Under the pieces are notes generated by a model. That model ran no database searches, had not been told where the DNA came from, and was given only the letters and a program-made list of their open reading frames with translations. Made by a program: the position numbers and the translations under genes. 47,223 nt of DNA from Bdellovibrionia bacterium (GTDB lineage Bacteria; Bdellovibrionota; UBA1018): positions 1-47,223 of the forward strand of contig JBIIXZ010000001.1 in the NCBI GenBank assembly GCA_044347055.1. Reading direction: 5' to 3'. This document shows, piece after piece, positions 6,278 to 28,537 of the stretch (positions are counted from its first letter, which is position 1; every line of letters starts with the position of its first letter).

Positions 6278-6304
6278 GACCCCAGCCGTACCGCAAAAGA
6301 GGCC

Positions 6305-7918
6305 TCAGCGCATCGTGAAATTCCTGGCCGCGCTGAACTCGCTCTTGGCCGTGGGCGAGATCGAACGCACGCGCCAGTAGTAGGTTCCCGGCTCACGCGG
6401 CAGGTAAGAAAAAAAGTTATCCGTCACGGATCGAGAGATTTCCATGTCGGCAAATGTCGGGTTTCTCGAGATCTGGACCATGTATTCCGACGTAAAGTTC
6501 GTATGGCTCCAGGTCAGGAGGATCGGCGTGCGCGGGGTCGTCACCGAGATTGCCGCACGATCCGCCGGACGGGCCAGGGCTGGCGGCAGGAAGCTGAGAC
6601 GAAACTTACCCATCGACGAGAGTGCCCGGAACCCGCTCTTCAGCCTTGCAGAAACCCGGAAGTAGAATGGCTCGGTAGTGAGCTCTCCTTTTTTCAGGAG
6701 CAGTCGTGGCTCGTTCGTCTCGCCCGAGAAGACGACCGCCTTGCCCCTCTCATCACGAAACACGCTCACCTCGTAGGACCGGGCATCCGGTACGGGGTTC
6801 CACGCCAGCAGAAAGCCCGGAAAGCTGGTGACGAGGTCTGCCGCAATCCTGTTGGTCAATCCTCGAGATCCAGGAGCCGTGGCATCCAGCAACGTGATGG
6901 CTTCAAAATCACTCGTGAGCTCGAACGAATGCGTGCCAAGCGGGGCGTTTGCATCCAAATCCTCAATCGACCATTCGAACGAACCCGGCTTTTCCAGGAA
7001 TACCGGAACGGCAACCTTTCCGGCCCGCGCAGCCACGGTTTCGTCCAGCAGTGCTCCGCCGAGCCAGGCGCCCGCCGTCTTGAGCTGAAGGCGGTACTTG
7101 CCATCGGGGCGGGACGTCTCGAACTCCAGGGCAATGCGGACTCGCCCGGTCGATGCATTTGCGGGAGGGGCCACTCGCGCCCCAGGGGCGGGAATGAGCG
7201 AGCTCAGTGTTGCGGGCAGGATCTTCGGCTTTGGGGGAGGAGGCGGCGGAGGAGGCGCCAGCTCCACGACCCTCGCGGCCGCCGGAACTTCGATTGCGGG
7301 CGGAAGCTTGGCTTCAATCACTTTTACGGGGACCGCATCGACCACCAACTCGACCTTCTTCGGAACGACCGGCTCCTCTCGAACGACCTGCTTCAGCGAC
7401 TCGGCGCCCAGGGTGGCCGTCTTGCCGGTCGTCGTTCGCACGAGGATCTTCCGTTCGGTGGCCTGACCGGTGACCGCACCGGTAACCAGCTCGACGTTGG
7501 CCTGGCGAGTGATGCCGCCGATCGAGAACTCCGTGTCGAAGGCAAGCTTCACCATGGTGTCGGAGGCCAGCTCGATCGTTCCCCCATCATCCAGTTTCAC
7601 CGCGGCGCTGACGCCGGGGTCGGTGACGACCGTATCCTGGTTGTGGAGGACTTCTCCCGGAGCGATCGGAAGGAATTCGGATTCGGTGGCGCCCTGACGC
7701 CGAACTTTGCCGGTCGCGGACGACAGCTGGCCCACGCGAACCCCGGCCGTGGTGGTTTGTTCGAAGTGGAGGACATACTTTCTGAGCACCGGAAAATCGG
7801 TGACGTACATGGTGACAGCCACCAGAAAAACAGGAATCGCGAGAAGCAGGAGCGCCCACTCCCAGGGCTTGAACCCCTGGCGCGCGGTGATCTGCGGAGT
7901 GGCCGCGAGGGTCTCCAT
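6305..7918 (-). CDS. Membrane-anchored FecR-domain protein with C-terminal FN3/Ig-like repeats
   Basis: There is one TM segment (WALLLLAIPVFLVAVTMYV). The FecR-like segment reads GKVRRQG...LPIAPGEVLHNQDTVVTDPGVSAAVKLDDGGTIELASDTMVKL. It also has a P8 run and two W-x-P...Y-x-V units. The ATG at 7918 overlaps the upstream TGA by 1 nt (TGATG); the track start at 7921 is a TTG one codon upstream. Confidence 0.65.
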   Translation of the reverse strand: METLAATPQITARQGFKPWEWALLLLAIPVFLVAVTMYVTDFPVLRKYVLHFEQTTTAGVRVGQLSSATGKVRRQGATESEFLPIAPGEVLHNQDTVVTDPGVSAAVKLDDGGTIELASDTMVKLAFDTEFSIGGITRQANVELVTGAVTGQATERKILVRTTTGKTATLGAESLKQVVREEPVVPKKVELVVDAVPVKVIEAKLPPAIEVPAAARVVELAPPPPPPPPKPKILPATLSSLIPAPGARVAPPANASTGRVRIALEFETSRPDGKYRLQLKTAGAWLGGALLDETVAARAGKVAVPVFLEKPGSFEWSIEDLDANAPLGTHSFELTSDFEAITLLDATAPGSRGLTNRIAADLVTSFPGFLLAWNPVPDARSYEVSVFRDERGKAVVFSGETNEPRLLLKKGELTTEPFYFRVSARLKSGFRALSSMGKFRLSFLPPALARPADRAAISVTTPRTPILLTWSHTNFTSEYMVQISRNPTFADMEISRSVTDNFFSYLPREPGTYYWRVRSISPTAKSEFSAARNFTMR

Positions 7919-9792
7919 CAAGTGATCCTTGCGACCGCCAGCGTGACGTCATCGTCGAGGTCCTTGCCGGCATTGTGTTCCATGAACTCGGCCATGAGCT
8001 TTTCGATGACGGAATCCGGGCCGGCGCCCACCGTGGCCTCCACGATGCGACGAACGCGTTTTTTGCCGAACTGTTCGCCTTCGAGATTTTTTCCTTCGGG
8101 AAGTCCATCCGTGTAGAGAAAGAGCAGGTCGTTACTGGAGAACGGCACGGTCTTTTCACGGTAGGGCTCGATATCGCGCGATTCACCGACACGGGGGCCC
8201 TCGGCGGTGAGGCTGTTCAGCTTGAAACCGGAACCATTGCTGGTGAAGTGCCACGGTGGATTGTGGCCTGCGTTGGCGTACGTCAGGGTCATGGCGTCGA
8301 AGTCGAGCACGCACGAAAAAAAAGTCATCATGATCTGGCCGGAAGCCGCTTCGTGGACCACTCGGTTGGCGTAGGCGAGCATCGCCCCCGGTGAATAGGT
8401 GAAATCCGGGTCTTCCTGCGCCAGCTTGTGCATCACGCTGAAGCAGCTCCGCGCGGAGGCGGTGATGAGCGCACTGGGGATTCCATGTCCGGTTGCGTCC
8501 GCAATCATGAGGCAGAGGCGGTTTCCCACCTTGAAAAAGCCCCACCAGTCTCCACCGCACTGCGATGCCGACTGGTAGCGGCTGCTGATCTCGATTCGGG
8601 AATCCGAAAACTTTGCTGGAGGAATCAGGGTCTGCTGAACCGTGGACGCAACGGCCAGTTCGTTCTCGAGTTGAACCTTTTTCACGCTCTCCTCGATCAG
8701 CTCGCTGATCTTGCGGGACATCACGTTGAACGAGGCTCCGAGCGCTCCGATCTCATCGCGGCTCCGGGTGTTCAGGCTCAGGTCGAATCTGCCGGACGCC
8801 ACATCCTTGGTGGCCTGATAGAGCTCCAGGATGGGAGCGGTGAGGCTTTTTGCGAAGATGAGGGCAAAAATGATGCCGGTGGTGATGCAGATGATGCCAA
8901 GAAGCACGAATTTTTCGGCCAGCGTGTAAGTCGACGCCATTGCCTTCTGCCAGTCGATCCGCGAGATCGCCACCAGGTCGAGGCCCGGCCTGGTATAGCT
9001 GGCAAGCACTCTCTGGTTCTCGAGCCGGAACTCGCCTGCACCGGAGGCTACCGGATTCTTCAGCGCCGCCTGGAAGATCGGATCATTGACGATGTTTGCA
9101 GCAGAAAACTGGACGGAGTTTTCCGAATCAAAGAGCACGTATCCGTCCGTGTTGCTGATCGTGATTCTCGAGCCTCGGAACTCTTTTGCAAAATCCCTGA
9201 TCGGCGCAAAGCCGATGACCACTGGAATCGTGTCGTCCGCCGACTTGTACTTGGTGTCCGCAAGGATGATGGCCTGCGAGGGCTGTCCCGGCCGAGAGGT
9301 ATTGACGAGGTAGACCTGCGATTTCATCAGCCCGGGAGTGGCAATCGGAAACCATTCATTGGCCAGGTTGAAGTCATCCGATTTCAATTTTGCCTTCTGG
9401 AGCCCTTCCTCCTGGGTAAAGGTTGCGCCCGGCTCGAAGACGAGAGTCTTCGTCGAAAGCCTTCCCGCCTTGATCAGCAGCAGGTCCGACTGGTTGTCAA
9501 TGGTGGACTGGATTGCTCGACGCTCCGTCGGCGAGACCGGCCGCGCGGGGTCAAAGTTGGACAGCACGAGGCGAAGCGTGGAGAGGGCGCGACCATTCAG
9601 GTTGAGGAACTCTCGACTCGCCAGAAGCGTCTCGGTCCCCTGCGCCTGGAAGGTGTAGGCGCGCTTGTCGTCGGTGAGAACGACAATGGTGGAAACCGTG
9701 AGGAAGGCGATCACGACCAGCAACAACGTGACGACACTGAGCAGGAGCTTGGTGCCCAGTGAGAATTTGACCTTAAATTGCTGTTGCTCCAT
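7918..9792 (-). CDS. Sensor PP2C (SpoIIE/RsbU-type) serine phosphatase with extracytoplasmic domain and HAMP
   Basis: Two TM segments flank a ~270-aa domain. The HAMP reads PILELYQATKDVASGRFDLSLNTRSRDEIGALGASFNVM. The PP2C motif reads GGDWWGFF...LMIADATGHGIPSALITA. I prefer the ATG at 9792 (MEQQQFKVKF...). The track start at 9957 would overlap the divergent gene at 9841. Confidence 0.8.
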   Translation of the reverse strand: MEQQQFKVKFSLGTKLLLSVVTLLLVVIAFLTVSTIVVLTDDKRAYTFQAQGTETLLASREFLNLNGRALSTLRLVLSNFDPARPVSPTERRAIQSTIDNQSDLLLIKAGRLSTKTLVFEPGATFTQEEGLQKAKLKSDDFNLANEWFPIATPGLMKSQVYLVNTSRPGQPSQAIILADTKYKSADDTIPVVIGFAPIRDFAKEFRGSRITISNTDGYVLFDSENSVQFSAANIVNDPIFQAALKNPVASGAGEFRLENQRVLASYTRPGLDLVAISRIDWQKAMASTYTLAEKFVLLGIICITTGIIFALIFAKSLTAPILELYQATKDVASGRFDLSLNTRSRDEIGALGASFNVMSRKISELIEESVKKVQLENELAVASTVQQTLIPPAKFSDSRIEISSRYQSASQCGGDWWGFFKVGNRLCLMIADATGHGIPSALITASARSCFSVMHKLAQEDPDFTYSPGAMLAYANRVVHEAASGQIMMTFFSCVLDFDAMTLTYANAGHNPPWHFTSNGSGFKLNSLTAEGPRVGESRDIEPYREKTVPFSSNDLLFLYTDGLPEGKNLEGEQFGKKRVRRIVEATVGAGPDSVIEKLMAEFMEHNAGKDLDDDVTLAVARIT

Positions 9793-11292: not shown

Positions 11293-11913
11293 ATGAAGGT
11301 CATTCTTGCCTCCACCTCTCCCCGAAGAATCAGCCTGATGGAACAGGCTCGAATCCATGTCGAAGTGCTCTCGCCCCGATGCGAGGAGCTGACGAAGCGT
11401 GGAGAATCGCCTGCTCGCATGGTTCGCCGACTGGCTCTGGAGAAGGCCCAGTCCGTGGCGTTGCTGCCGGAGGCCGGGCAGGGAGAGCCCGCGGTGGTGA
11501 TTGCCGCCGACACCACGGTGGTGGCTCCGGGCGGAAAACGAATCCTCGGAAAGCCGATGGATGTTCGCGATGCCGAGCGCATGCTCAAGCTCATTTCCGG
11601 TAAGACGCACGAGGTGCTGACCGGCTATTGCCTGCTGGGTTGGGACGAAAACGGCCGCATGACCACGTGGTCGCGCGTCGTGCGTTCCAGGGTGACGATG
11701 CGAAAGGTGTCGACGGAGATGATCCGTGACTACGTTGCCAGCGGAGAGCCCATGGACAAGGCGGGCTCGTACGCTGCTCAGGGATTCGGGATGAACTGGA
11801 TCCAGGCCATTCGCGGCAGCTACACAAACGTGGTCGGCCTTCCGATGTGCGAGCTCCTGATGGACCTCGAAGAAAAATTTGGAGTCCGGCCACGGAGCCG
11901 GTTGGAAGCGTGA
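11293..11913 (+). CDS. maf: Maf-family nucleoside triphosphate pyrophosphatase
   Basis: Reads MKVILASTSPRRISLM...GKP.D...A...L...SG..H.V.TG...DKAG.Y..QG. The internal ATG at 11293 is in frame within the 10885..11913 ORF; the upstream part overlaps the preceding gene. Confidence 0.85.
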   Translation: MKVILASTSPRRISLMEQARIHVEVLSPRCEELTKRGESPARMVRRLALEKAQSVALLPEAGQGEPAVVIAADTTVVAPGGKRILGKPMDVRDAERMLKLISGKTHEVLTGYCLLGWDENGRMTTWSRVVRSRVTMRKVSTEMIRDYVASGEPMDKAGSYAAQGFGMNWIQAIRGSYTNVVGLPMCELLMDLEEKFGVRPRSRLEA

Positions 11914-12593
11914 GCCACGTCGCAGAAAAGCTTCAGCAGGTGCGTTCTCTCCTGTCAGGACATCCGAATGCAGCGCTGATCGCGGTGAGCAAGGGACAGC
12001 CCTTCGAGAAGATCCTCGAAGCCTACCATGCCGGCCAGCGCGACTTCGGCGAGAACTACGTGCAGGAGCTGCTCGAAAAGGACGCGCAGGTTCGCGCCGC
12101 CGGAATCACGGATCTTCGATGGCATTTCATCGGCCACCTCCAGACCAACAAGGTGAAGGCGCTCCTTCCGGTCGTCTCGGCGATCCACACGGTCGGGTCG
12201 CAACGACTGGCGCAGGAGCTCTCGAAGCGCTGGGCGTCTTCAGGCCGCTCCGGTCGGCTTCCGGTGTTTCTCGAGGTCAACATCGATCGCGAGGAGTCCA
12301 AGGGGGGCCTCGATCCGGACACGGTCCTCGCCGAATATGCCGCCATGCGCGAGCTTCCAGGGCTCGAGTGGCGGGGTCTGATGTGCATTCCCGCTCCCGA
12401 GGGCGGTCGGTCGGGCGAGTCCTTTCGCAGGCTGGTCAAACTGGAGATGCAGCTCCGGCCCGGCACCGCAGGCGAACTCTCCATGGGAATGAGCGATGAT
12501 TACGAGATTGCACTCCGTGAAGGCGCTGGTGCGTCGAAGGTCTGGATCCGTATCGGCACCGGAATTTTCGGGGCGAGGCAGCCGCGCGCGTAG
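11910..12593 (+). CDS. yggS: YggS-family pyridoxal-phosphate homeostasis protein
   Basis: Motifs: LIAVSKGQP, FGENYVQEL, WHFIGHLQTNKVK, ELSMGMSDDYE.A. The GTG at 11910 overlaps the maf TGA (GTGA). Confidence 0.85.
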   Translation: MSHVAEKLQQVRSLLSGHPNAALIAVSKGQPFEKILEAYHAGQRDFGENYVQELLEKDAQVRAAGITDLRWHFIGHLQTNKVKALLPVVSAIHTVGSQRLAQELSKRWASSGRSGRLPVFLEVNIDREESKGGLDPDTVLAEYAAMRELPGLEWRGLMCIPAPEGGRSGESFRRLVKLEMQLRPGTAGELSMGMSDDYEIALREGAGASKVWIRIGTGIFGARQPRA

Positions 12594-12649
12594 GGTTTCC
12601 AGATCCGGGGTTGGCCCGCGACTTCCGCTGTGCTAGCAAGGATTCAAGT

Positions 12650-12726
<77 letters not shown>

Positions 12727-12736
12727 TCTTTTCCTC

Positions 12737-13315
12737 TCACCAACTCCGTGAACGAATCGTGCCGGTGTCCTCGTCGAGCGAGCCGCCCCTCCAGCCGTCG
12801 CCCCGAGAGGCGGGCTGGCGAGTCTCTGGCTCAGCCGGCTTTTTTTCCGCAACGGCGTCATGGCCTTCCGGATAGAGCTGCGAAGGCCCGGGCTCGGTCT
12901 GGTAGGCGACCAGGGGTGAGCCCGCGGGAGAGTTCGAGATCACGAATTTGTCGTATTCCTTTCCACTCCTCGGATCGCGGTAGACCCTGAAGCCCGGCTC
13001 CAAGGAAATGCCGAGGACATTTCGGCGAACGAGCTGCTCGTTCGGGCTGGAGTGGAAGCGATAGCCGATGACCATGACCTTTTTCGCGGGATCGCGGTCA
13101 TCGATCTTGAGCGCGAGGCTCTTGGTGCTCCCGCCCGGGTAGACGTGGATTTCGAGGTTTCCTTCCCACTCGATGACATTGACCTTCTTGCCGGAGCGGC
13201 CGCGGCCGTCCAGGCGATCATAATCGTCATCGAAACCGGCGGCAAAGCCGCCGGGCCCAGTGCCCAGGGTGATGAGGGAGGCCAGAGCCAGCGAAAGCAG
13301 TGTCGACGCGCGCAT
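12737..13315 (-). CDS. Secreted hypothetical protein
   Basis: 192-aa ORF with an N-terminal signal peptide (MRASTLLSLALASLITLGTG). No family recognised. Confidence 0.6.
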   Translation of the reverse strand: MRASTLLSLALASLITLGTGPGGFAAGFDDDYDRLDGRGRSGKKVNVIEWEGNLEIHVYPGGSTKSLALKIDDRDPAKKVMVIGYRFHSSPNEQLVRRNVLGISLEPGFRVYRDPRSGKEYDKFVISNSPAGSPLVAYQTEPGPSQLYPEGHDAVAEKKPAEPETRQPASRGDGWRGGSLDEDTGTIRSRSW

Positions 13316-13508
13316 GGATTTTCTCCTGTCCTAATCTTTTCGGCTGGGGACGGCTCAGGCGAGAGTGTGTCATTTCTTGAAAATGCAGAGATTTCGGCGT
13401 TTCGGTGCGTCTTTCGGGACACATCTGGCGGGGCTGGTGAAGCTCTGCGATCCTGAAAGGGTTGAAATCTGCGGCACGTCGGCGATCGAATCCTGGAAGG
13501 AGCTCGAC

Positions 13509-14825
13509 GTGCGTTTCGTTTTACCGAAAACCCTTGGTACCACCCTGGCTCTCTCTTCGGTCGTGCTTGCGGCCGAGGCTCATGCGGCGGGAATTTACCG
13601 CGTGACGGAATACTCGCTCGGCGGTGCCGTGGGCGGACCGGACGAGATGCAGGATCAATGGACCAACAAAGGTTACACGTCGACGGGCCAGAACCTGACG
13701 CCCGGAGTAGTGGCCGTGGACGAGAGCGCGGGATTTCCGCTCGGCACGATCTTCAAGGATCCGGACACAGGGTACTGCTACATTGCAGCCGACCGGCACG
13801 GAAACGGAAATCCCCGGGTGATCGACGTCTACCGGCCCCCGTCGCAATACGGATCGACGCCCGGATTCATGTCGCTCGATGTCTGGAAGCAGGGCGCGGG
13901 ACGCTCCAGCGTCGGCGCCACTCCGGAAGCGATCCGCGCGCAGCTCGAGGAATGCGGAGAGGTTCCCGAAGGAGAGTCCGCCAAGGACTGGCTGGCGGGA
14001 AAATCCTCGGGCAACGGCAATTATATCGCCCATGACGAGAAGGCCCGCGGGGGAAAGTCGAAGGATGCTTGCCGGCAGTCCGCGACGATGGACTCCAAAG
14101 CCGAGTGCGATCCGACCCATGAAAAAGTGGCGATTTCCAAAGTAGTGGAGAAGGTCGTGAGCGATGTGGGTACCCGGTCGGTCGAAGCGAAGGGAAGGCA
14201 GGAGGCTGCCGCAGCCCTGGCCGAAGGCCCTCAGAACATGAAGGAGCCTTACTCGGCCGCACTGCGCGCCGCCGGGCACGGCGAGAATGTGCTCACGACC
14301 GCCGGTCAGACTAATCTTCTCGAGTCGATGGGCCAGTTTGAGCGAGCCCGCCTCCATCACCAGATGCGTCGCAAGCTCGCGCGCGAGATCGAGAGAGAGA
14401 AGCAGGAGGTCCAGTCGGCAACCGCCGACGAGTCCGACCTGGCGAGCTCCGGCCAGGAGGAGGGCAGCACCTATGCCCTGAAAAGCAGGACGGTTCGAAA
14501 GTTCGAGATGAATTCTGCCGGAACGGTCAAGGGCCAGCAGTGCAATGTCCAGACGGATCCCGGGTGCCGGATGGCAAAGATGAAGCGTCGCGACGGCTTC
14601 GAGCAGAAAAAGAAGCATGTCTCCGGACTCCTCGACGGACTCAAAAGGGACGTGCAAAAGGAGCAGGACTCCTCCGAGAAGGAGGCCCAGCAGGGGGCTC
14701 TCGCCTCGCTTGGTAAAGCCATCCAGCAGCTTCAAGGGGCAGCCCAGGCCAAAAAGCAGAAGCGCGAACTCGCCTCGACGCTGGAGTCGATGCAGGGCGA
14801 GCCAAGCACCCCCGAGCAGGAGTAG
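13509..14825 (+). CDS. Secreted 3D-domain (MltA/RlpA-like double-psi barrel) protein with long charged coiled-coil tail
   Basis: Signal peptide: VRFVLPKTLGTTLALSSVVLAAEAHA. The 3D motif reads GVVAVDESAGFPLGTIF...YIAADRHGNGNPRVIDVY. GGAAGGAG lies 7 nt upstream of the GTG at 13509. The track start at 13365 adds a non-signal extension. Confidence 0.7.
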   Translation: MRFVLPKTLGTTLALSSVVLAAEAHAAGIYRVTEYSLGGAVGGPDEMQDQWTNKGYTSTGQNLTPGVVAVDESAGFPLGTIFKDPDTGYCYIAADRHGNGNPRVIDVYRPPSQYGSTPGFMSLDVWKQGAGRSSVGATPEAIRAQLEECGEVPEGESAKDWLAGKSSGNGNYIAHDEKARGGKSKDACRQSATMDSKAECDPTHEKVAISKVVEKVVSDVGTRSVEAKGRQEAAAALAEGPQNMKEPYSAALRAAGHGENVLTTAGQTNLLESMGQFERARLHHQMRRKLAREIEREKQEVQSATADESDLASSGQEEGSTYALKSRTVRKFEMNSAGTVKGQQCNVQTDPGCRMAKMKRRDGFEQKKKHVSGLLDGLKRDVQKEQDSSEKEAQQGALASLGKAIQQLQGAAQAKKQKRELASTLESMQGEPSTPEQE

Positions 14826-14883: not shown

Positions 14884-16929
14884 GTGCGTGGTATGAGAAT
14901 CGCCTTCACGCACAACCTGAAGACCAGCACTGCCGAGTCCGAAGCGGAGTTCGATACGCCGGAAACAGTGGCGGCGATCCGGAAGTCGCTCGAAAGCCTG
15001 GGCCACGAAGTGGAAGCCGTCGAAGTCAGCGGCCCGGCGTCGCGCACGATCGCGCGGCTCGAGGCGCTCTCGCCGCAGATCATCTTCAACACGGCCGAAG
15101 GCCACCGCGGCCGCTTCCGCGAAGGATTTTTTCCGGGAATCTTTGAGCAAATCGGCGTTCCGTTCACGGGATCCGACGCCTACGTCTGCACGCTGACCCT
15201 CGACAAGGCGCTGACCAAGAAGGTGGTCGAGGAAGCCGGCATCCGCACGCCGCGCTCGCTCTTCATCCGCGAGCTCTCCGAGCTCTCAGGCCAGAAGCTT
15301 CGTTTTCCGCTGATCCTGAAGCCGAACTTCGAAGGAAGCTCGAAAGGAATCACCGTCGATTCGATCGTCGAGGACCAGGCAGCACTCGAAAAGCGCGCCT
15401 CGATCCTGCTCGCCAACTATTCGAGCGGCGTGCTGGTCGAGGAGTACATCCTCGGCCGCGATATTGCCGTACCGATGATCGAAGGTGTTTCGGACGAAAC
15501 CGGCGGAGTGCTCTCGCCGATCGAGTATGTCTTTGATGCCGCCATCACCGCGCAGCGCAAGTTCCAGCTCTACGACTACACGCTCAAGAACGATCTTTCG
15601 GACCACGTTTCGGTCAAGCTCATGCCGAAGACCGATCCGGTCTACGCGCGCCTGATGCAGCAGTCGAAAATCGTCTTCGAAAAGCTCGGTGTGCGCGATC
15701 TTGGCCGCATCGATTACCGCGTCACCGACGACGGCGAAGTTTTTTTCATCGAAGTGAACGCGCTGCCGAGCCTCGAGCCCGGAGCCGGAATTTACCTCGC
15801 CGCTGCCGCGGCGGGGCTGACGAAGACCGAACAAGTTTTGGAAAAAGTGCTTCAGTCGACCTGCCGCCGCTACGGCATCGGGTACTCCGGCAACGGAAAT
15901 CGTCGACAGAAACAGGTGCTTCGCGTCGGATTTGCGTTCAATCAAAAGCGCATCACCCCGACCGAAGACGTCAAGACCGACCAGGAAGCCGAGTTTGATT
16001 CGCCGAAAACCCTGGAGGCGATTCGCGAAGCGATTCGCTCCTACGGCCACACGGTGATTGATCTCGAAGCGACTCCGGATCTTCCGTCGCGAATCCACCC
16101 GGAAGACGTCGACATTGTGTTCAACATTGCCGAGGGAATGCGCGGCAGAAATCGCGAATCGCAGGTGCCGGCGCTGCTGGAGCTCCTCGACATTCCGTAC
16201 ACAGGTTCAGATGCCGCGACGCTGGCTCTGGCTTTGGACAAGGGCCTTGCCAAGCGCATCGTCGCCCAGGCCGGCGTTCCGACTCCCGCCTTTCAGCTCA
16301 TGCACACGGGCAAGGAGCGCCTGAACAAGGACATCCATTTTCCGGCAATCATCAAGCCCGTAGCCGAAGGCAGCTCCAAGGGAGTGATCGGAACAAGTGT
16401 GGCGAACTCGGAGGCCGAGCTTCGCGAAAAGGCCGCCTTCATCATCGAGCGGTACCGACAGCCTGCCCTCGTGGAGGAGTTCCTGCCGGGACGCGAATTC
16501 ACGGTGGCGCTTCTCGGCGAGCGTCGTGCTCGCGTGCTGCCGCCGATGGAAATCGTGTTCACGCAGCCGGACAAGGATCCGAACCCCGTCTACTCGTACC
16601 AGCACAAGCTCAATTCGAACGACGAGGTTCGCTACGATCGTCCGGCACAGATCGAGCCACGCCTGAAGGAAACGATCGAGCGCATCTCGCGCAAGGTGTT
16701 CACGGCCCTCGGTTGCCGCGACCTTGCGCGCATCGACCTGCGCATCGATGCCCGAGGACAGGTCAACTTCATCGAGTGCAATCCGCTTCCGGGCCTGACG
16801 CCGGGCTGGTCCGACCTGTGCCTGATTGCCGAGAGTGCCGGCATCGGTTACCGTGAGCTGATCGGCGAGATCATGGCCCCGGCTATTCGCCGCTATAAGG
16901 AAAAGAAGAACCTCGAGCTGAAGGCCTGA
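14884..16929 (+). CDS. Tandem-duplicated ATP-grasp protein (two D-Ala-D-Ala-ligase-like modules fused)
   Basis: The two halves are collinear. First half: FNTAEGHRGRFRE...VPFTGSDAYVCTLTLDKALTKK...FPLILKPNFEGSSKGI. Second half: FNIAEGMRGRNRE...IPYTGSDAATLALALDKGLAKR...FPAIIKPVAEGSSKGV. The start is either the GTG at 14884 or the ATG at 14893. Confidence 0.75.
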   Translation: MRGMRIAFTHNLKTSTAESEAEFDTPETVAAIRKSLESLGHEVEAVEVSGPASRTIARLEALSPQIIFNTAEGHRGRFREGFFPGIFEQIGVPFTGSDAYVCTLTLDKALTKKVVEEAGIRTPRSLFIRELSELSGQKLRFPLILKPNFEGSSKGITVDSIVEDQAALEKRASILLANYSSGVLVEEYILGRDIAVPMIEGVSDETGGVLSPIEYVFDAAITAQRKFQLYDYTLKNDLSDHVSVKLMPKTDPVYARLMQQSKIVFEKLGVRDLGRIDYRVTDDGEVFFIEVNALPSLEPGAGIYLAAAAAGLTKTEQVLEKVLQSTCRRYGIGYSGNGNRRQKQVLRVGFAFNQKRITPTEDVKTDQEAEFDSPKTLEAIREAIRSYGHTVIDLEATPDLPSRIHPEDVDIVFNIAEGMRGRNRESQVPALLELLDIPYTGSDAATLALALDKGLAKRIVAQAGVPTPAFQLMHTGKERLNKDIHFPAIIKPVAEGSSKGVIGTSVANSEAELREKAAFIIERYRQPALVEEFLPGREFTVALLGERRARVLPPMEIVFTQPDKDPNPVYSYQHKLNSNDEVRYDRPAQIEPRLKETIERISRKVFTALGCRDLARIDLRIDARGQVNFIECNPLPGLTPGWSDLCLIAESAGIGYRELIGEIMAPAIRRYKEKKNLELKA

Positions 16930-16930
16930 G

Positions 16931-18040
16931 ATGAGTCCACAGATCAAGAAAACACCCCGATGCCGGGCGCGAGACCTGGGCATCCAGATCGGCTTTTATG
17001 AACCCGGCCCCCTGAACGCCATCACGGACGTCGAAGGCGTTCGTGTCGGCCATTCCACGATCATTCGCGGCAGCGGCTCGCGCGGCAGCAAGACGATTGC
17101 CCGCACGGGCGTGACGGCGATCGTTCCGGCCAATGGCGATGTCTTCATGAATAGCGTCATGGGCGGCGCGTTTGTCCTGAATGGCGCGGGCGAACTTGCG
17201 GGACTGACCCAGATCAATGAGTGGGGGCTGATCGAAACCCCGATCCTGCTCACGAACACCCTGGCCGTCGGTGCGTGCGGCGAAGGCGTCGTGCAGTACA
17301 TGACCGAAAAGCATCCCGAGATCGGTAATATCCACGACGTGGTGATTCCGGTCGTGGGCGAGTGCGACGACTCGTGGCTGAACGAAATCATCGGCCGCCA
17401 CGTCAAGCCGTCGCACGCCATCGAGGCGATCGAGAAGGCATCGACCGGGCCCGTGGCCGAAGGTTCGGTCGGCGGCGGTACCGGAATGATCACCTGCGAT
17501 TTCAAGGGCGGAATCGGCACCTCGTCTCGCCGAGTGAAGATCTACGACAACACCTACACGGTGGGCGTGCTCGTGATGAGCAACTTCGGCGTCATGCGAG
17601 ACCTCCGGATTGATGGCAAGCCCATTGGTCGGGCGATCGAGCCGCAGTTCGAAGGGCGGTCGCGCCGCGAGAAAAATTACGGCAGCATCATCGCGGTGCT
17701 CGCCACCGATGCGCCGCTGCTCTCGCACCAGCTGCAGCGCCTGGCCAAGCGCATGGGCCTCGGCGTCGGCCGGGTGGGCTCGATGGCCGCGCACGGCTCG
17801 GGCGAGATCATGCTCGCGTTCTCGACGGCCAACCGCGTGCCGCGCGAAAGCATCAAGCCGCTCTATTCGGTGCAGATCCTCAAGGATACGGCGGTCGATC
17901 CGCTCTATGGAGCCGCGATCGAGGCCACCGAAGAGGCCATCCTGAACGCGCTCTTTGCCGCCGACACGATGGAAGGCGTTGCCGGCCACACCGCCCACGC
18001 CATTCCGATCGACCAGGTGCGCGAGCTCCTGACGCGCTGA
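16931..18040 (+). CDS. DmpA/BapA-type (P1, S58) Ntn aminopeptidase
   Basis: Motifs: NAITDVEGVRVGH, GVTAIVP, and a self-processing-site-like YG|SIIAVLATDAPL. It starts 2 nt after the ATP-grasp stop. Confidence 0.75.
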   Translation: MSPQIKKTPRCRARDLGIQIGFYEPGPLNAITDVEGVRVGHSTIIRGSGSRGSKTIARTGVTAIVPANGDVFMNSVMGGAFVLNGAGELAGLTQINEWGLIETPILLTNTLAVGACGEGVVQYMTEKHPEIGNIHDVVIPVVGECDDSWLNEIIGRHVKPSHAIEAIEKASTGPVAEGSVGGGTGMITCDFKGGIGTSSRRVKIYDNTYTVGVLVMSNFGVMRDLRIDGKPIGRAIEPQFEGRSRREKNYGSIIAVLATDAPLLSHQLQRLAKRMGLGVGRVGSMAAHGSGEIMLAFSTANRVPRESIKPLYSVQILKDTAVDPLYGAAIEATEEAILNALFAADTMEGVAGHTAHAIPIDQVRELLTR

Positions 18041-18062: not shown

Positions 18063-20576
18063 TCAGATCCAGCTATCGAGCTGCTTCTTCAGGTAATCCT
18101 GGACGTTGGGATTCTTTTTGTTTCGCACTGCTTCTCTAGCGTCCTGGAGCTGCTGTCGAATGAAACTCTCCGGGGGGGCAAATTTGTTGGTAGGATTCTT
18201 CATCCGATAAAGCCGCAGGATCAGCCGCGATTCGACCGCCTGTGGGCTGAGGTTCTCCGGCGCGCCCTTCTTTTGGTCGTAGTCCTTCGCGCGACGGTCT
18301 GCTGAATCGAAGTCTTGGACGACTCTCGCCGTCTCAGCATTCACCCACGATTGATCGATCGCCTTGTTTCGTCCGGCGAGCATCTGGTCCCACTTTTTCC
18401 TGGCCCCGGATCGATCGGCGTCCGGCAGGGTTCGATCCTGCATGTCGGACTGGATCTTCACGAGAGCGTCCTTTCTGGCCTTGTCGTCTGTTGTGTCGAG
18501 CAGATTGAAAGAGCCAGCGCCCCAGGCATCAAAGTGCCGGTGGGCCTCAAAATCCTTGAGTAGGCCCTCTGCCTTGCCGAGCCGGTCCGCATAGGTCTTC
18601 TTCTCGGCGAGCTCCTTACTGACGCTCTTGAGAGTGGACACGTTCGCCTGAACGCGCGCGTAATCTTGCCTCAACTTGTCCTGCGCGCGATCATCTTTCT
18701 CTTTCGTGATTTGATCATTGATCGAGACCAACTGCTTTTCGGATCGAGCGATCTCGGAGGCAATCTGCCTACTGGCCTCGGTAAGGCCGGCAGCATCGGA
18801 GGATTTCAGCTCCTCGCGGGGCTTGATTGCGAGATCTCGAAGCGCCTTCTTTTTTTCCAGCTCCTCAGCGCGTCCGGCGTTCTCGGTGTTCGCGCGATCT
18901 CCGGAAGTGATCTGATCCTGCTCAAACACTCGGTCGAGTAGCTGTTGCCGTTCCAGACTTTCCTGGCCCTGTGGTTTCTCTGCAACCTTGATGGATGGTG
19001 CTGCCGATGAAGGTTTCATCGGGTCGAGGTTCGGGCTGGGCTTTGCCGCAGGTGTTGCAGTCACACCCAATCGAGTGAGCTCCTGGTCGATCGCCTGAAC
19101 CAGTTTCTTCCGCCGGTTCGGGTTGCCTCGATCCTCCGCCACACCCAAGAGACGGTCTTTTGCTTTTTGAAGGCGGTCAACTGTCGGCTGATGTTCGGAT
19201 GAATTCGGATCGACATCCTTGGCAAGTGTCAGAGCTTCTTGGGCCTGATCGACCGGGCGCGGACGCCTCGGGCGGACTGGAGCTTCCGCTGTCGCGGGTG
19301 GCGCTGACGGTGCGGCAGCAGGCGCTTCGGCCACCGGTGTCGCGGCAGGCGCGTCCGTGGACGGTGCCGGAGTCTCGGTTCCGCCACTCGCCGGCGCAGT
19401 CTCGGAAGCAGGGGGCTTCGAAGCTGATTCCGCGACGGCCTGAGGCGCCGCCTCGGAAGTCGCCGGCGTCACGCCGAGGTACTGAGCAATTGCAGCCTCG
19501 CAAAACTTCGGCTCATTCTCGAAAGCCTTCGAGCGGAGCGCGAGTTCAAATGCCAGGCGAGGACAGTAAAGCAAAGTTCGGCTCAGAAGCCCGGGGTCCT
19601 CGACCTTGACCTGGCGCGCGAGTGCGGCGACGTCGATCTTCAACTGTTCAAACGGAGGACCGCTTCTGAAGCGCCTGGGAGTGCCGCAAGCCTGCGCGAG
19701 TGCCGGAAGATCTCCTTGCTGTAGCATCTGCGGACCGGCTCCTTCTCCAAAAACAGCCGCGAGCGACTGGTCAACGAGGCCTCCTGGTGACCAAGAATTC
19801 GAGGTATTCAGAAGATCGCTCGCCTTTGCGCCGAGCCTCGAAGGAACGCCGCTTCCGACGCGATGTTGGGTGGCGTTCATCAGTTGTGCGGCAGCTGATG
19901 CAATCGCCTGTTTGTCTTCAGTGGATGCTTCCGAGTACGGCGACAAGAATGCCTGCATTCCCAGGAGGTAATCCTCGATTCGTTCGTCTTCGCAGGCGAG
20001 GACAATTTGCGCGGGAGGAAGCGACTGCTGATTTGTAGTGGTCGTGGTGGTCGTCGCGGCGCCTGCTGCCGCCGGCGCCTTGGCCTCGCATGCGGTGCAA
20101 GGCTTGCCAGCTGCCGAAGCGGACTCGTTCAGCTCCTGCACCTTCTTGGCCAAAGAGGCATCTTCGGCTGGTGCAGGTTGATATAAACCCTCGGGAGCCG
20201 CCTCTCCGACCTTGTCTCGACCAAAGGCCTTCCGAACTCCGCCCACCACTTCGCGGCCTCCATCGACGACTCCGCCCGCTACTCCTCCGATGACCTTTCC
20301 CCCGCCTTTGACGACGCCTTTTCCGATCTGGAAAATTCCGCGCCCGACTGCGCCGACGCCTTTACCGATGGCACCACCGACTTTAGCCAGGCCCTTGCCC
20401 ACATCGCGGATGTGCACAGGCTTGGCCTTGTTTTGATGATGAAGTGGAAAGCTGCTCGACGGCCCGGCGAGTGCTGCTGAGGAAAGAACCAGGGTTGCCG
20501 CTATGGCGAGACGGCTGGAAGCCCGCCGAACGCGTGATCGGGCCGCAAAGGATGGCATGTTGGGATGAACGGACAT
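18063..20576 (-). CDS. Large secreted protein, paralog A (Gly/Lys-rich N-region, Pro/Ala linker, conserved C-terminal domain)
   Basis: 837-aa ORF with a signal peptide (RRASSRLAIAATLVLSSAALA). The C-terminal ~290 aa are collinear with and highly similar to the neighbouring gene 20679..22814. Confidence 0.75.
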   Translation of the reverse strand: MSVHPNMPSFAARSRVRRASSRLAIAATLVLSSAALAGPSSSFPLHHQNKAKPVHIRDVGKGLAKVGGAIGKGVGAVGRGIFQIGKGVVKGGGKVIGGVAGGVVDGGREVVGGVRKAFGRDKVGEAAPEGLYQPAPAEDASLAKKVQELNESASAAGKPCTACEAKAPAAAGAATTTTTTTNQQSLPPAQIVLACEDERIEDYLLGMQAFLSPYSEASTEDKQAIASAAAQLMNATQHRVGSGVPSRLGAKASDLLNTSNSWSPGGLVDQSLAAVFGEGAGPQMLQQGDLPALAQACGTPRRFRSGPPFEQLKIDVAALARQVKVEDPGLLSRTLLYCPRLAFELALRSKAFENEPKFCEAAIAQYLGVTPATSEAAPQAVAESASKPPASETAPASGGTETPAPSTDAPAATPVAEAPAAAPSAPPATAEAPVRPRRPRPVDQAQEALTLAKDVDPNSSEHQPTVDRLQKAKDRLLGVAEDRGNPNRRKKLVQAIDQELTRLGVTATPAAKPSPNLDPMKPSSAAPSIKVAEKPQGQESLERQQLLDRVFEQDQITSGDRANTENAGRAEELEKKKALRDLAIKPREELKSSDAAGLTEASRQIASEIARSEKQLVSINDQITKEKDDRAQDKLRQDYARVQANVSTLKSVSKELAEKKTYADRLGKAEGLLKDFEAHRHFDAWGAGSFNLLDTTDDKARKDALVKIQSDMQDRTLPDADRSGARKKWDQMLAGRNKAIDQSWVNAETARVVQDFDSADRRAKDYDQKKGAPENLSPQAVESRLILRLYRMKNPTNKFAPPESFIRQQLQDAREAVRNKKNPNVQDYLKKQLDSWI

Positions 20577-20678
20577 TGTTAGAACCCCCAGTTCTACTGA
20601 AGAGTTTCAGTCATGCCACTGCCGCACACAAGATGGGTCGGGTCGGACACGGGGTGCGCCAGTTCTGAGGGGCTTCGG

Positions 20679-22814
20679 CTAGTCAGAATTTGTTGCCGGG
20701 TCGGACCACGGTTTTTCGAGGTACTCGATCACGGATTTGACCCTACCAGCCCGAACGGCTGCCTGAGCCTCAAGCAGGATCTCTCGGATTGCCGTCTCGG
20801 AGGGGGCGTAGAGGTTGCCCGGGTTTCGCCGCCGGTAGATTTCCAAGATTCTCTGAGAAATCGGCAGTTTTGGAGTGAGATCGATCGGTGCGTTCACTTG
20901 CGCGCCTTCACTCTTTTTATAATAGCCGACAGCGCTATCAGCCTTATCGAAGTCCGCGACAATTTTCTTGGTTTCCGAGTTCAGCCACGATTGCTCCTTC
21001 GCCTTCCGTTGTCCGGCGAGCATCTCGTCCCACTTTTTCCTGGCCCCGGATTGATCCGCCTCCGGCAGGGTTCGATCCTGCATATCGGACTGTATCTTCA
21101 CGAGAGCGTCCTTTTTGGCCTTCTCGTCTGTTGTGTCGAGCAGATTGAAAGAGCCAGCGCCCCAGGCATCAAAGTGCCGGTGGGCCGCAAAATCCTTGAG
21201 TAGGCCCTCTGCCTTGCCGAGCCGATCTGCGTAGGTCTTCTTGTCGCCGAGTTCCTTCCGGACGCTCTCGAGCGCGGAAATGCTCGACCGAACGCGCGCG
21301 TAATCGGCCCTCAACTTATCCCGCTCGCGATCATTTTTCTCGCTTTTGATCCGATCATTGAGAGGACCCAGCTGCGCTTTGGAGCGAGTGATCTCGGAGC
21401 CAATCTGGCGTCCTGCCTCGGAAAGCCCAGCAGCATCGGAGGATCTCACCTCATCGCGGCGCTTGAGCGCCAGATCTCGAAGCGTCTTCTTTTTCTCAAG
21501 GTCCGCAGCACGCTCCTGGTTCTCGGTGTTCGCGCGATCGCCCAAGGTGATGGGGTCCTGCTCAAACACCTGATCGAGCAAGTCCTTCTGCGGGTGAGTC
21601 GGTGCTTGCGGAGTTGCCTCGGTCTTTGTGGGCTTCGCCGGGCCTTGTGGAGCCCCGCCATTATTGGCGAGGGAGGCAGGCGCGCCACCTTCGGAAGAAC
21701 CGTCAGCTACCGTTGAAGCTCCCGCATCGCCGGCCCCCGAGCTACCTGCAAGGGCCTGGGCGTCAGCGCCTGCGGTCGGCGGCGAGTTCAGCAGCTTCTC
21801 GATTTCTGATTTGCAGGCCGCACCGACCTGTCGCGTCTCGAAATACTCGAGTCCCCCCTTTTTTCCGCCGTAAGTGTGATCGAACTCATTGTAAGCAAGC
21901 TCGATATTGAGTCGCGGACAGGCGGCAAGCAGCCTGCCGATGTACTTGATGGTCTCCAACGAGGAACCCGTCGCGGCCGACTTGCCTTGAACGGAAAATT
22001 TTCCGCCGGCACTGGAAAGCTTTTTTCCCAACCCCTGAAATCCGGCATGCGTCTGAAGATCCTTCGGCGTTCCGCAAGCGGCAAAGAAGGCCGCATCGTC
22101 GACCGGATTCAGCGCAGTGAATGAAGCCGCCTGCTGCCCGAAGACCCGGTTCATGGCCGCAAGGGTGTTCTTCGGGTGGATCACGAACCGATCCGCCGAC
22201 ATCTGCAGCAGCCCGAAATTGGTCTGATGGTTGATGGTGATGCCCCCGCCATTAAGGACCTTGTCGAACACCTCCGGGCGACCTTTGGATTTGAACTTCG
22301 TGCCCTGGTAATTCATGTCGGTGATGTTGAGAGTGTTGTAACTGGATTCCTCATCTGCCATGCCCAGAATCTTGGCAGCACGCGCGGCAAGCTGGCCGGG
22401 GTTAGCCTGGCGATCTGGGTGATTGCGAAGAAAGACCTCCACCGCCGCAAGCGTCTCCGGGCTATTGACCTGAGGGCACGTCAGCTTTTCGGACGCACTC
22501 GATGGCGCCGGCGGGCATCTTGGTGCGTCTGGGCTTTTTGCCGCGCAATCGTGGCAACTCGGATCAACGCAAGCAGCAATGTCTGTTGGCGCGGATATCA
22601 CCGCCTGCACGGCTGCGCTGTCTTCTGAGGCCCTCTTCGCAGCAGCATTCTTCTTTAATGCCTGCCTGAACTCGGCATGATACCTCTCGACCGCTTGCTG
22701 ATAAGTCTCACCTTCGCGCTGCGTGACCCGACCTAGTGCCACCGGAGCCATCACATGACTCCACGCAATCACTGCAGGAATCACCAACGATAGGATCTGA
22801 AAACGACGGCTCAT
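20679..22814 (-). CDS. Large secreted protein, paralog B (possible lysozyme/SLT-like N-domain, low-complexity linker, conserved C-terminal domain)
   Basis: 711-aa ORF with a signal peptide (MSRRFQILSLVIPAVIAWSHVMA). It has the motifs MADEESSYN...TNFGLLQMSADRF. The C-terminal domain is shared with 18063..20576. Confidence 0.75.
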   Translation of the reverse strand: MSRRFQILSLVIPAVIAWSHVMAPVALGRVTQREGETYQQAVERYHAEFRQALKKNAAAKRASEDSAAVQAVISAPTDIAACVDPSCHDCAAKSPDAPRCPPAPSSASEKLTCPQVNSPETLAAVEVFLRNHPDRQANPGQLAARAAKILGMADEESSYNTLNITDMNYQGTKFKSKGRPEVFDKVLNGGGITINHQTNFGLLQMSADRFVIHPKNTLAAMNRVFGQQAASFTALNPVDDAAFFAACGTPKDLQTHAGFQGLGKKLSSAGGKFSVQGKSAATGSSLETIKYIGRLLAACPRLNIELAYNEFDHTYGGKKGGLEYFETRQVGAACKSEIEKLLNSPPTAGADAQALAGSSGAGDAGASTVADGSSEGGAPASLANNGGAPQGPAKPTKTEATPQAPTHPQKDLLDQVFEQDPITLGDRANTENQERAADLEKKKTLRDLALKRRDEVRSSDAAGLSEAGRQIGSEITRSKAQLGPLNDRIKSEKNDRERDKLRADYARVRSSISALESVRKELGDKKTYADRLGKAEGLLKDFAAHRHFDAWGAGSFNLLDTTDEKAKKDALVKIQSDMQDRTLPEADQSGARKKWDEMLAGQRKAKEQSWLNSETKKIVADFDKADSAVGYYKKSEGAQVNAPIDLTPKLPISQRILEIYRRRNPGNLYAPSETAIREILLEAQAAVRAGRVKSVIEYLEKPWSDPATNSD

Positions 22815-22897
22815 GACGAGACCCCCACTTCAAGAGGGTAACCGGGCCCATGTTCGGCTCCTAGATGCGTCGAAATCGACACATCTTGAAAGTTTTT

Positions 22898-27123: not shown

Positions 27124-27690
27124 ATGGCACTCATGTACTCGCAGGTTCCGACGGAGAAGGAATTGGGCTCGCTGGCGCCCGGATTTTCGCTGAAAGGAGT
27201 CGACGGCAAGGTCCACTCGCTGGCGGACTATTCGAGCTCCCGGGCGCTGGTGGTCATCTTCATGTGCAACCACTGCCCGTACGTCATTGCGGTCCAGGAG
27301 CGCATCAACCAGCTGGCAAAAGAGTTCGGACCTCGGGGAGTGTCGGTTGTTGGAATCAATTCGAACGACACGAGCCGGTACCCCGCCGACAGCTTCGAGG
27401 CCATGCAGGCCCGCGCCGCCGAGCAGGGGTATGCGTTTGATTACCTGATCGATGAGACGCAAGAGGTGGCCCGGGCCTACGGCGCGGTGTGCACGCCGGA
27501 CCCGTTCGTGTTCTCCAACGACGGCGGCAAATTCGTGCTCCGCTACCACGGGCGCATCGATGACAACTGGAAGGAGCCGGCGCAGGTGTCGCGGCGCGAG
27601 CTCGCCGAGGCCCTCGAGTCGATCCTTGCCGGTAGCCGGCCCTCGGCCGATCAGGTGCCCACGATGGGCTGCAGCATCAAATGGCGGTGA
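27124..27690 (+). CDS. Thioredoxin-fold (redoxin/AhpC-TSA-like) protein
   Basis: APGFSLKGVDGKVHSLADY, VVIFMCNHCPYV (CxxC), and a typical C-terminal MGCSIKW. Confidence 0.75.
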   Translation: MALMYSQVPTEKELGSLAPGFSLKGVDGKVHSLADYSSSRALVVIFMCNHCPYVIAVQERINQLAKEFGPRGVSVVGINSNDTSRYPADSFEAMQARAAEQGYAFDYLIDETQEVARAYGAVCTPDPFVFSNDGGKFVLRYHGRIDDNWKEPAQVSRRELAEALESILAGSRPSADQVPTMGCSIKWR

Positions 27691-27973
27691 TGTCCGACTC
27701 TTCCGAGGTCACTCGCGCGAACGAGTGGGTGTCGATGTAGTCGCAGATCTTTTTCGAGAAGGTCGTGATGCTGGCCTCGCGCCAGTGATTCGGAATCACT
27801 GCCGCGAAGCCGATCACGCATTGTTCGGGATCTTCCAGCGCATCGATCTCCAGCGCACTCACGTTGAACTGCTTCCGTACGTCCTCGCAAAGCTCGGCAA
27901 GCTGCCGGCGTTTCTTTGCAATGTCCGTATTGTTGAAGAAATCCATCGTGATTCGGGTGGCGGCGATTCGCAT
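27677..27973 (-). CDS. Hypothetical small protein
   Basis: 98-aa ORF (89 aa from the second Met) with plausible composition. Its 3' end overlaps the convergent redoxin gene by 14 nt. No family recognised. Confidence 0.4.
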   Translation of the reverse strand: MRIAATRITMDFFNNTDIAKKRRQLAELCEDVRKQFNVSALEIDALEDPEQCVIGFAAVIPNHWREASITTFSKKICDYIDTHSFARVTSEESDITAI

Positions 27974-27991
27974 GAGGCGAGTTTATCCGGC

Positions 27992-28465
27992 TCAACCGGT
28001 CGCATCAATCTCGGGCGCCTTGACCAGGACATCGAGCGTGGCGCTCTGGCTCTGCCGGCCCTTGCTGTTGATGGCCACGATCGACGCATCATACTTCATG
28101 GTCTTGCCGCTGACGGCCAGCCGCTTGATCTGCTCCGGCGTCAGGGTCGCCCGCCAGGTGGTTCCTGCCACCCGCTCCATCGGAATCATGATCGGGGCAT
28201 TGTTGAACATGATTCGAACGCTATCGACTTCTGCGGTCATGTCCTTCACTTCGGCCAGGATGGTGGGCGTCTGGATCGGGCGCAGCGTGCGGGTGACTTC
28301 GAAGGTGCCGGGTTCGGTGCGGGCATTCAGGACGGTCGGTCCGGTCTGCGACAGCTCCTCGCCTCCGGTGCTCCGCCTGAAGGGCGAGCTCGAGCAGCCG
28401 GCGGCAAGGACGGCAGCCAGGGTGAGGAAAGAAGTCACGAAAATGGCGTTTTTGGTGGGGCGCAT
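27992..28465 (-). CDS. Lipoprotein, function unknown
   Basis: Signal peptide with lipobox: FLTLAAVLAAGC. 157-aa ORF. Confidence 0.65.
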   Translation of the reverse strand: MRPTKNAIFVTSFLTLAAVLAAGCSSSPFRRSTGGEELSQTGPTVLNARTEPGTFEVTRTLRPIQTPTILAEVKDMTAEVDSVRIMFNNAPIMIPMERVAGTTWRATLTPEQIKRLAVSGKTMKYDASIVAINSKGRQSQSATLDVLVKAPEIDATG

Positions 28466-28537
28466 GGAAATTCTCCTTGATCGAGCATTGTTGCAGACCC
28501 GGGGCCAGTTATACTGGGATGACCGGGAAGAGGGATC

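Follow-up and report, generated by a model that had tools for sequence, protein, structure and literature searches.

The window, a 47,223-nucleotide (nt) stretch at the start of contig JBIIXZ010000001.1 from a Bdellovibrionia bacterium, contains two adjacent minus-strand genes, here called A and B, whose products share a C-terminal domain. Gene A (18063-20576) encodes 837 residues and gene B (20679-22814) encodes 711; both open reading frames (ORFs) are intact and have exactly the coordinates and lengths given in a preliminary description of the sequence. They are separated by 102 nt, and the features of A and B given below lie, like the genes, on the minus strand. A GGGGG stretch that may act as a ribosome-binding motif is located 8 nt 5' of the ATG of A (20585-20589), and a second one 7 nt 5' of the ATG of B (22822-22826). 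The protein encoded by A is present in public collections as P0004/P0036. A protein identical to B is also found there (P0003/P0035), named only 'hypothetical protein'. No third copy was found within the window. A and B arose by a recent tandem duplication of a single chromosomal gene, restricted in its lineage, in a bacterium of the Bdellovibrionota type.

The two proteins are built on the same plan. From its N-terminus, A consists of a signal peptide, a Gly-rich segment, a degenerate head domain, a linker, an insert module, a second linker and a helical tail; B consists of a signal peptide, a Cys-rich N-terminal region, an intact head, a single Pro/Ala/Gly-rich linker and the helical tail. 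The C-terminal 317 residues of A and B are 61% identical and 77% similar (BLASTP, E = 4e-123), which bears out the proposal of a tandem paralogous pair with a highly similar C-terminal domain. The tail itself occupies residues 544-837 of A (18066-18947), 61% identical to the tail of B at residues 410-711 (20682-21587). The low-complexity linkers were also recognized correctly: the composition is 25% Ala, 17% Gly and 14% Pro in B (residues 345-409, 21588-21782) and 31% Ala and 24% Pro in A (residues 370-441). The N-terminal regions had been called divergent. Their identity is indeed low (28%), but they are not unrelated; a second, weaker BLASTP match between the N-terminal halves (E = 5e-8) and a Cys/CPRL framework common to both show that the heads are homologous. 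Family alignments place the head at residues 109-344 of B (21783-22490), with all family-invariant residues present, and at residues 183-369 of A (19470-20030). The cysteines of both proteins are confined to the heads, and the tails have none.

Protein A contains two further segments. The insert module (residues 442-505, 19062-19253) is a stretch of about 64 residues flanked by the two linkers, and it shows a tentative relationship (18-27% identity) to inserts in P0007 and in the protein of locus L023, two relatives described below. A Gly/Val/Lys-rich segment of 70 residues (55-124, 20205-20414) follows the signal peptide; it is 34% Gly, 20% Val and 11% Lys and contains seven GxxxG motifs. Alignment showed this segment to be peculiar to A and missing from all orthologues, and it had no match in Pfam. 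No tandem DNA repeats were found that could be the source of the Gly-rich or the Pro/Ala segments.

Signal peptides were called with a heuristic test of the n-, h- and c-regions rather than with a formal predictor. The N-termini of A and B both have a positive n-region, a hydrophobic core of about 12 residues and small residues as cleavage candidates. The signal-peptide-like sequence of B spans residues 1-28 (22731-22814; MSRRFQILSLVIPAVIAWSHVMAPVALG), with a charge of +2 in the n-region and a hydropathy of 2.48 at residues 7-18. That of A spans residues 1-37 (20466-20576), with a charge of +5 and the hydrophobic sequence LAIAATLVLSSA. All full-length relatives have signal-like N-termini by the same test, so the signal peptides of the preliminary description look present in both proteins and in the relatives examined. 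Two or three members of the head family (described below) have a lipobox and would be lipoprotein forms. Public gene calls differ on the starts. The NCBI-derived calls (P0003 and P0004) begin 21 codons (B) and 53 codons (A) later than the longest ORF and so exclude the signal peptide, whereas the Joint Genome Institute (JGI) calls use the long starts for both genes. We favor the long starts because signal peptides occur throughout the family. A and B are probably exported via Sec-type signal peptides. B also contains a Tat-like sequence, S-R-R-F-Q-I-L.

The tail of B was modeled with AlphaFold2 (AF2) as an all-α bundle, with a mean predicted local distance difference test score (pLDDT) of 88.7 and a predicted template modeling score (pTM) of 0.75. 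The model has three long helices (positions 50-83, 87-136 and 177-220; 34, 50 and 44 residues) and shorter helices at both ends. Lys and Arg make up 19% of the tail residues and Asp and Glu 17-18%, which gives a balanced charge; the charged and helical character ascribed to the domain from its sequence is confirmed. The tail lacks any hydrophobic segment, is elongated and helical in the model, and is placed behind a flexible linker. It is predicted to be soluble.

Searches of A and B against Pfam, NCBIfam, PHROGs, PADLOC and PDB sequences gave no relevant match. Nothing relevant was obtained when profiles of the tail and head families were compared with PDB sequences, or when seven members were compared with Pfam at E ≤ 10. 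Foldseek gave the tail model no significant neighbor; the best E values were 0.6 against the PDB and 0.27 against BFVD. The top PDB rows, none of them significant, were spectrin/plakin repeats and Smac (E 0.6-5, template modeling [TM] scores 0.2-0.3). These bundles resemble the tail model in that it is built on three long antiparallel helices, and they differ from it in the extra short-helix elements at both ends; the rows are not evidence of homology. By the sequence libraries and the PDB and BFVD folds searched, the tail is an unclassified and very rare domain, and the preliminary description was right to find no known family for it and to regard it as an undescribed module.

The rarity of the tail was established by an exhaustive HMMER search of 1.84 billion representative proteins with a profile of the two tails. 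A word-indexed protein search, run with the tail and with the head of B, missed A, B and P0005-P0007 although all are in the collection, and its negatives alone cannot be trusted. The exhaustive search matched five proteins: A (P0004), B (P0003), P0005 (688 residues), P0006 (556 residues, an N-terminally truncated fragment) and P0007 (851 residues). The tail was preceded by the head in all five representatives and never occurred without it. Conserved positions in the five-tail alignment are mostly those of the hydrophobic core, together with an N-terminal L-L-D-x-V-F-x-Q-D motif and one Trp. The tail of A is complete, and the alignment with the orthologue tails covers it from one end to the other.

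The head proved to be far more widespread. An alignment of 33 sequences, only 24-50% identical overall, defines a family of at least 33 proteins that are exported by the heuristic test, and most of them have no tail. The tail-less group comprises 27 further proteins of 270-490 residues, one group of which comes from Legionella micdadei. Two others, P0001 and the L023 protein, carry the head in front of two other, unrelated C-terminal regions; we considered whether these could be distant homologues of the A/B tail and rejected this, as hhalign gave probabilities of 0.1-0.2%. All named members of the head family are labeled 'hypothetical protein'. The preliminary description had envisaged variable heads on a conserved tail. 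The reverse was seen, with at least 33 heads and a tail restricted to A, B and three other representatives. Because tails are rare and follow the head, and heads are mostly tail-less, the arrangement is that of a conserved head with optional, variable tails.

The head residues that are invariant in all 33 sequences are a Glu-Ser pair, Asn-Phe-Gly-Leu-x-Gln-x-Ser, three Cys, a Cys-Pro and one Asn; head proteins typically have six Cys. In B these positions fall in three motifs. The first, EESSYNTLNITDM (22314-22352), contains Glu156-Ser157, which is conserved in 33/33 heads and offers a candidate catalytic Glu at a helix end. The second, HQTNFGLLQMSADRF (22185-22229), contains N199, F200, G201, L202, Q204 and S206. 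The third, CPRLNIELAYNE (21885-21920), contains Cys299-Pro300 and Asn303. The pattern looks like an active-site signature on a disulfide-bonded scaffold.

The L. micdadei member (P0029, WP_143001031.1, locus tag Lmic_2399; L027 6001-7131) comes from a cultured human pathogen and is annotated 'hypothetical'; its neighbors encode a Legionella outer-membrane protein and a patatin-like protein, and a literature search for the locus tag found nothing. Two head-only genes, L029 5001-6050 and L030 5001-6098, share the neighborhood valyl-tRNA synthetase (ValRS) - thiamine pyrophosphokinase - acyltransferase - GpsA - head gene. The occurrence of this arrangement in two unrelated assemblies indicates that the head-only gene is stable and chromosomal in that clade. 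Six head-family gene neighborhoods had no recurrent functional partner.

The invariant signature of the heads resembles the E-S ... G-[IL]-[LM]-Q core of the lysozyme superfamily, and this likeness was tested by profile comparison. The only match of the 33-sequence head profile among PDB sequences was the c-type lysozyme 3cb7, at its catalytic Glu helix, with an E value of 0.34 that is not significant alone. In the AF2 model of the B head (pTM 0.71), helix 37-55 ends at Glu54-Ser55 (model numbering), just as the catalytic Glu of lysozyme is found at a helix end. The Glu motif and the NFGLLQ motif are separated by a variable 42-74 residues in the heads versus about 17 in hen lysozyme. When the insertion was removed from the head profile, hhalign produced a collinear alignment with residues 33-61 of hen lysozyme (score 28.3) and residues 26-62 of human lysozyme (score 29.8). 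Among the controls, 60 shuffles reached at most 20.2 and 35 fragments of real proteins at most 16.1. The alignment pairs the Glu-Ser of the heads with Glu35-Ser36 of hen lysozyme, and the second motif of B with hen TDYGILQINSR.

The resemblance to c-type lysozymes (glycoside hydrolase family GH22; hen, human) thus consists of Glu-Ser at a helix end and a later T-[DN]-[YF]-G-[IL]-L-Q-[IM]-[NS] motif, in proteins that are both exported (the head by the heuristic test) and disulfide-bonded. The differences are considerable. The head has no PF00062 match and carries a 25-57-residue insertion in the hairpin region; it has about 240 residues rather than 130, its Cys are elsewhere, and the remainder of the domain does not align. 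Moreover, the position aligned with Asp52 is occupied by an invariant Asn (N97 in head numbering, N199 in B). Because of this Asn, any such enzyme would be of the single-carboxylate type, like lytic transglycosylases.

Several results weigh against a lysozyme-like enzyme. The Asn at the Asp52 position is one of them. The collinear two-motif alignment was obtained only if the deletion brought the spacing to within about 4 residues of that in lysozyme, which is a post hoc choice; outside this range, hhalign gives a single-motif lysozyme match with a score of 19-22. The intact head profile matched hen lysozyme with a probability of 2.4% and goose lysozyme with 0.8%. None of the seven members, and none of the insertion-deleted constructs, matched a Pfam lysozyme or soluble lytic transglycosylase (SLT) family at E ≤ 10. 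Foldseek found no lysozyme for the head model (best E = 1.3, TM < 0.2), and its rows are noise, mostly transporters, prenyl synthases and ARH3; residues 57-109, which hold the motifs, have a pLDDT below 50. The model is poor at the motifs because its input was only six sequences, the 33-member family having come to light later. Finally, the neighborhoods of head-only relatives contain no peptidoglycan genes.

Other lysozyme types fared less well than the c-type. With goose-type lysozyme and the SLT family (GH23; Slt70, MltE, goose lysozyme) the heads share a single Glu followed by Ser and the G-L-[ML]-Q motif, and B has an A-Y-N-like motif; the E-S and G-L-L-Q motifs line up, but the Y-N of A-Y-N is not conserved across the head family, the hhalign score of 17.5 is within the null, and there is no PF01464 match. 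We therefore rejected membership of that family, a result that also counts against an enzymatic head. Lambda lysozyme was compared because its Glu-to-GxxQ spacing is similar (the lambda R sequence was verified against 1AM7). The lambda-type (GH104) and T4-type (GH24) enzymes were rejected on the same side of the balance, with scores of 15.0 and 15.9 against a shuffle maximum of 18.8.

These observations leave room for an alternative in which neither domain is enzymatic. A and B would then be exported proteins with a structural, adhesive or scaffolding role in the envelope; the likeness of the motif to lysozyme would be a coincidence, and the invariant residues would serve ligand binding or folding. 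The absence of a lysozyme fold or Pfam match for the head, the boundary-sensitive hhalign support, the null scores of goose, lambda and T4 lysozymes and the lack of peptidoglycan genes beside head-family members are all consistent with this explanation. However, a contiguous invariant polar and aromatic block (E-S; T-N-F-G-L-L-Q-M-S-A-D-R) across 33 heads is typical of an active site. Furthermore, the single-motif match to c-type lysozyme beats 35/35 real-protein controls in every variant, and the sole PDB match of the profile is a lysozyme, at the catalytic helix. We regard the non-enzymatic explanation as somewhat unlikely. That the head is a lysozyme-like enzyme that cleaves glycan strands is the best available hypothesis rather than an assignment, and we would put its chances at slightly short of even.

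There is a precedent in the phylum. DslA (Bd0314) of Bdellovibrio bacteriovorus is a lysozyme specific for deacetylated peptidoglycan, and is a secreted, highly divergent, disulfide-bonded enzyme of the lysozyme superfamily (PMC7511926). Membership of that superfamily is judged by a two-lobed fold, with a β-sheet floor and flanking helices that form a cleft (PMC7511926). DslA differs from the head in having two Glu (E143 and E154) and no helical tail; its PDB sequences (6TA9 and others) were not matched by the head profile, and DslA chains were absent from the fold matches of the head model.

A comparison can also be made with the lytic transglycosylases in terms of domain organization. Slt70 has the Glu of GH23 together with a large helical accessory domain, while the Mlt enzymes are lipoproteins, which parallels the lipoprotein head-only forms and the soluble long forms found here. 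The order in Slt70 is reversed relative to A and B, in which the catalytic part would be N-terminal, and the A/B tail has no fold likeness to any PDB chain.

The heads of A and B have met different fates. B keeps every family-invariant residue, whereas A keeps only 12/26 of the positions that are at least 90% conserved. The residues retained in A are the three Cys, the Cys-Pro, a Gly and a G-L. Those lost include the Glu (Leu211 in A), the Asn (Pro264), the Phe (Gly265) and the Gln (Asp269), together with the D-R pair, the Asn of CPxxN and a Tyr. By these alignments the head of A is degenerate. One explanation is that A is a duplicate without function that is turning into a pseudogene, and that B alone matters. 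The loss of 14/26 conserved head positions, including the invariant Glu and the NFGLLQ block, would fit such decay, as would the variability of the locus and the absence of an A-type orthologue elsewhere in the exhaustive tail search. Yet A is an intact 837-residue ORF in a genome of 60% G+C, with a ribosome-binding-like motif and a signal peptide by the heuristic test. It keeps the three invariant Cys, the Cys-Pro and the Gly residues, it has gained the 70-residue Gly-rich segment, and its tail aligns end to end with orthologue tails over its full length. Decay is therefore improbable. An ORF that is intact, structural residues that are retained and an N-terminal segment that is new fit a pseudoenzyme better than a decaying pseudogene, and A is most likely a pseudoenzyme partner or regulator.

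The tails of A and B had been credited with an invariant core, HRHFDAWGAGSFNLLDTTD. This core is invariant between A and B only. A repeat finder identified a direct repeat of 300 nt, 89% identical, at 18306-18605 in A and 20946-21245 in B (residues 525-601); the copy in A spans the reported core (residues 659-735), and inner windows reach 92-98% nucleotide identity. Residues shared by the two proteins use the same codon in 82-100% of cases within the tract, against 0.40 expected from codon usage; the values in the C-terminal third of the tail are 0.25-0.6. The orthologues read EHKHLEAWDIQNYRLLN, ATRSVEAWGGGLVNTLD and ETRDAESWGPGVFNKLD at the same place. Since the orthologues are far less conserved, and identity between A and B extends to synonymous sites, recent gene conversion between A and B explains the near-identity of the core best, rather than deep conservation of a functional motif.

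The chromosomal setting was compared with that in related genomes. The queA gene of the window is 92%, 73% and 66% identical to queA of metagenome-assembled genomes labeled Bacteriovorax stolpii, uncultured Bacteriovorax and Bdellovibrionales, respectively. The G+C content of the window is roughly 61%, the same as that of L004 and L005. The host may be predatory, judging from its phylum alone. The window and the related loci L024 and L025 have the gene order ABC transporter - queA - X - S58 peptidase - double Ddl-like ATP-grasp ... Maf in common, where X is the A/B pair in the window and the single-copy gene for P0007 in L024/L025. L007 shares this order with the single-copy gene for P0005 as X, preceded by an FHA-domain gene. 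In L006, queA directly abuts the S58 gene (junction at 1754-4107), and the site is empty. L024 carries two additions at the queA/S58 junction (12584-14133), an S58 fragment and an inserted AAA_14 gene. In L004, the closest relative, similarity to the window ends at the queA stop codon and is followed by a helix-turn-helix (HTH)/transposase-like ORF (about 11360-11764, with sub-threshold Pfam matches only) and then by the end of the contig. The shared order, the empty site in L006 and the variable junction indicate that the A/B-type gene has a fixed position, though one prone to rearrangement, and that some relatives can do without it. Duplication was seen only in the lineage of the window; two related genomes have a single copy and one has none. 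Relatives' copies are intact rather than pseudogenized, L006 simply lacking the gene; like the signal peptides and the absence of a known-family match, this agrees with the preliminary description. Promoter and terminator scans were at or below the shuffle expectation.

The preliminary description had also likened the layout to that of effector- or cell-wall-targeting proteins. A cell-wall role is plausible, but the effector part is not supported. On that account A and B would form an antibacterial toxin or bacteriocin-like (polymorphic toxin) module delivered to competitors or prey, in which the tail would bind a receptor or serve translocation. The phylum includes predators, A and B are exported, are built of modules and contain long helical hairpin-like elements, and the same head bears other tails in P0001 and L023. 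The Gly-rich segment of A is reminiscent of bacteriocin translocation domains. However, no free-standing small or immunity ORF was found beside A and B, and searches with Pfam and PADLOC revealed no secretion-system, Rhs or contact-dependent inhibition (CDI) markers. The synteny is stable and of a housekeeping kind, head-only relatives are found in housekeeping contexts and some are lipoproteins, and no matches pointed to a phage, plasmid or defense-system origin (including PHROGs and PADLOC). A toxin module is thus very improbable.

The explanation that we favor, with a probability of roughly 45%, is that B is an exported, possibly peptidoglycan-cleaving protein with a helical accessory tail and that A is its pseudoenzyme paralogue. 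The ancestral protein would have been Sec-exported, with a disulfide-stabilized head joined to an elongated helical tail by a flexible Pro/Ala linker. B would be the active form, whose head cleaves the glycan strands of peptidoglycan by means of the single invariant Glu; given the Asn at the Asp52 position, its chemistry may be closer to that of single-carboxylate lytic transglycosylases or g-type lysozymes. The most economical reading of the tail is a non-catalytic scaffold or targeting module, with a role comparable to that of the helical domain of Slt70, to which it would not be homologous. A has lost the putative active-site residues and kept the Cys framework and the tail, and would most probably act as a partner or regulator that shares the binding function of the tail. 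Gene conversion holds the centers of the two tails nearly identical.

A bolder version of this proposal is rather unlikely to hold in full. In it, the head would found a new family of exported single-Glu peptidoglycan glycosidases or lytic transglycosylases, marked by Asn in place of Asp52, by three disulfides and by a long insertion in the hairpin, and scattered in Bdellovibrionota-like and other uncultured bacteria and L. micdadei. The tail, in this version a new helical fold, would guide the enzyme to a specific envelope target, possibly on prey, and A, as a pseudoenzyme, would be either partner or competitor of B by way of its conversion-matched tail. The finding is a lineage-restricted orphan family and not a new kind of system.

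The head family is a more consequential object than the tail, and may represent a lysozyme-superfamily branch that has gone unrecognized. Should the head work as a muramidase or lytic transglycosylase, that superfamily would gain a branch that cannot be recognized from sequence, is now annotated only as 'hypothetical protein', and is present both in the human pathogen L. micdadei and in relatives of predatory bacteria, which are now being mined for enzymes that degrade cell walls. For such enzymes the tail would then be a new accessory domain, and A and B would be a compact natural pair of duplicates, an enzyme and a pseudoenzyme, that gene conversion holds together. If instead the head has no enzymatic function, what has been defined is a well-delimited pair of orphan domains from a poorly sampled lineage.

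Some other ORFs and genes of the window deserve mention. Two plus-strand ORFs of 843 and 342 residues (5585-8116 and 27452-28480) have no Pfam match at 1e-5, and overlapping opposite-strand ORFs exist. An ORF of 486 residues (13365-14825, plus strand), without a Pfam match, adjoins the Ddl-like gene, and a 454-residue gene, likewise without one, takes the equivalent position in L024 (17381-18745). The Ddl-like gene itself (14884-16929, plus strand) encodes a 681-residue protein with two tandem D-Ala-D-Ala-ligase-like ATP-grasp modules and is directly followed by the S58 (DmpA-type) peptidase gene (16931-18040, plus strand). This ATP-grasp/S58 gene pair is kept in L006 and L024, with or without an A/B-type gene.

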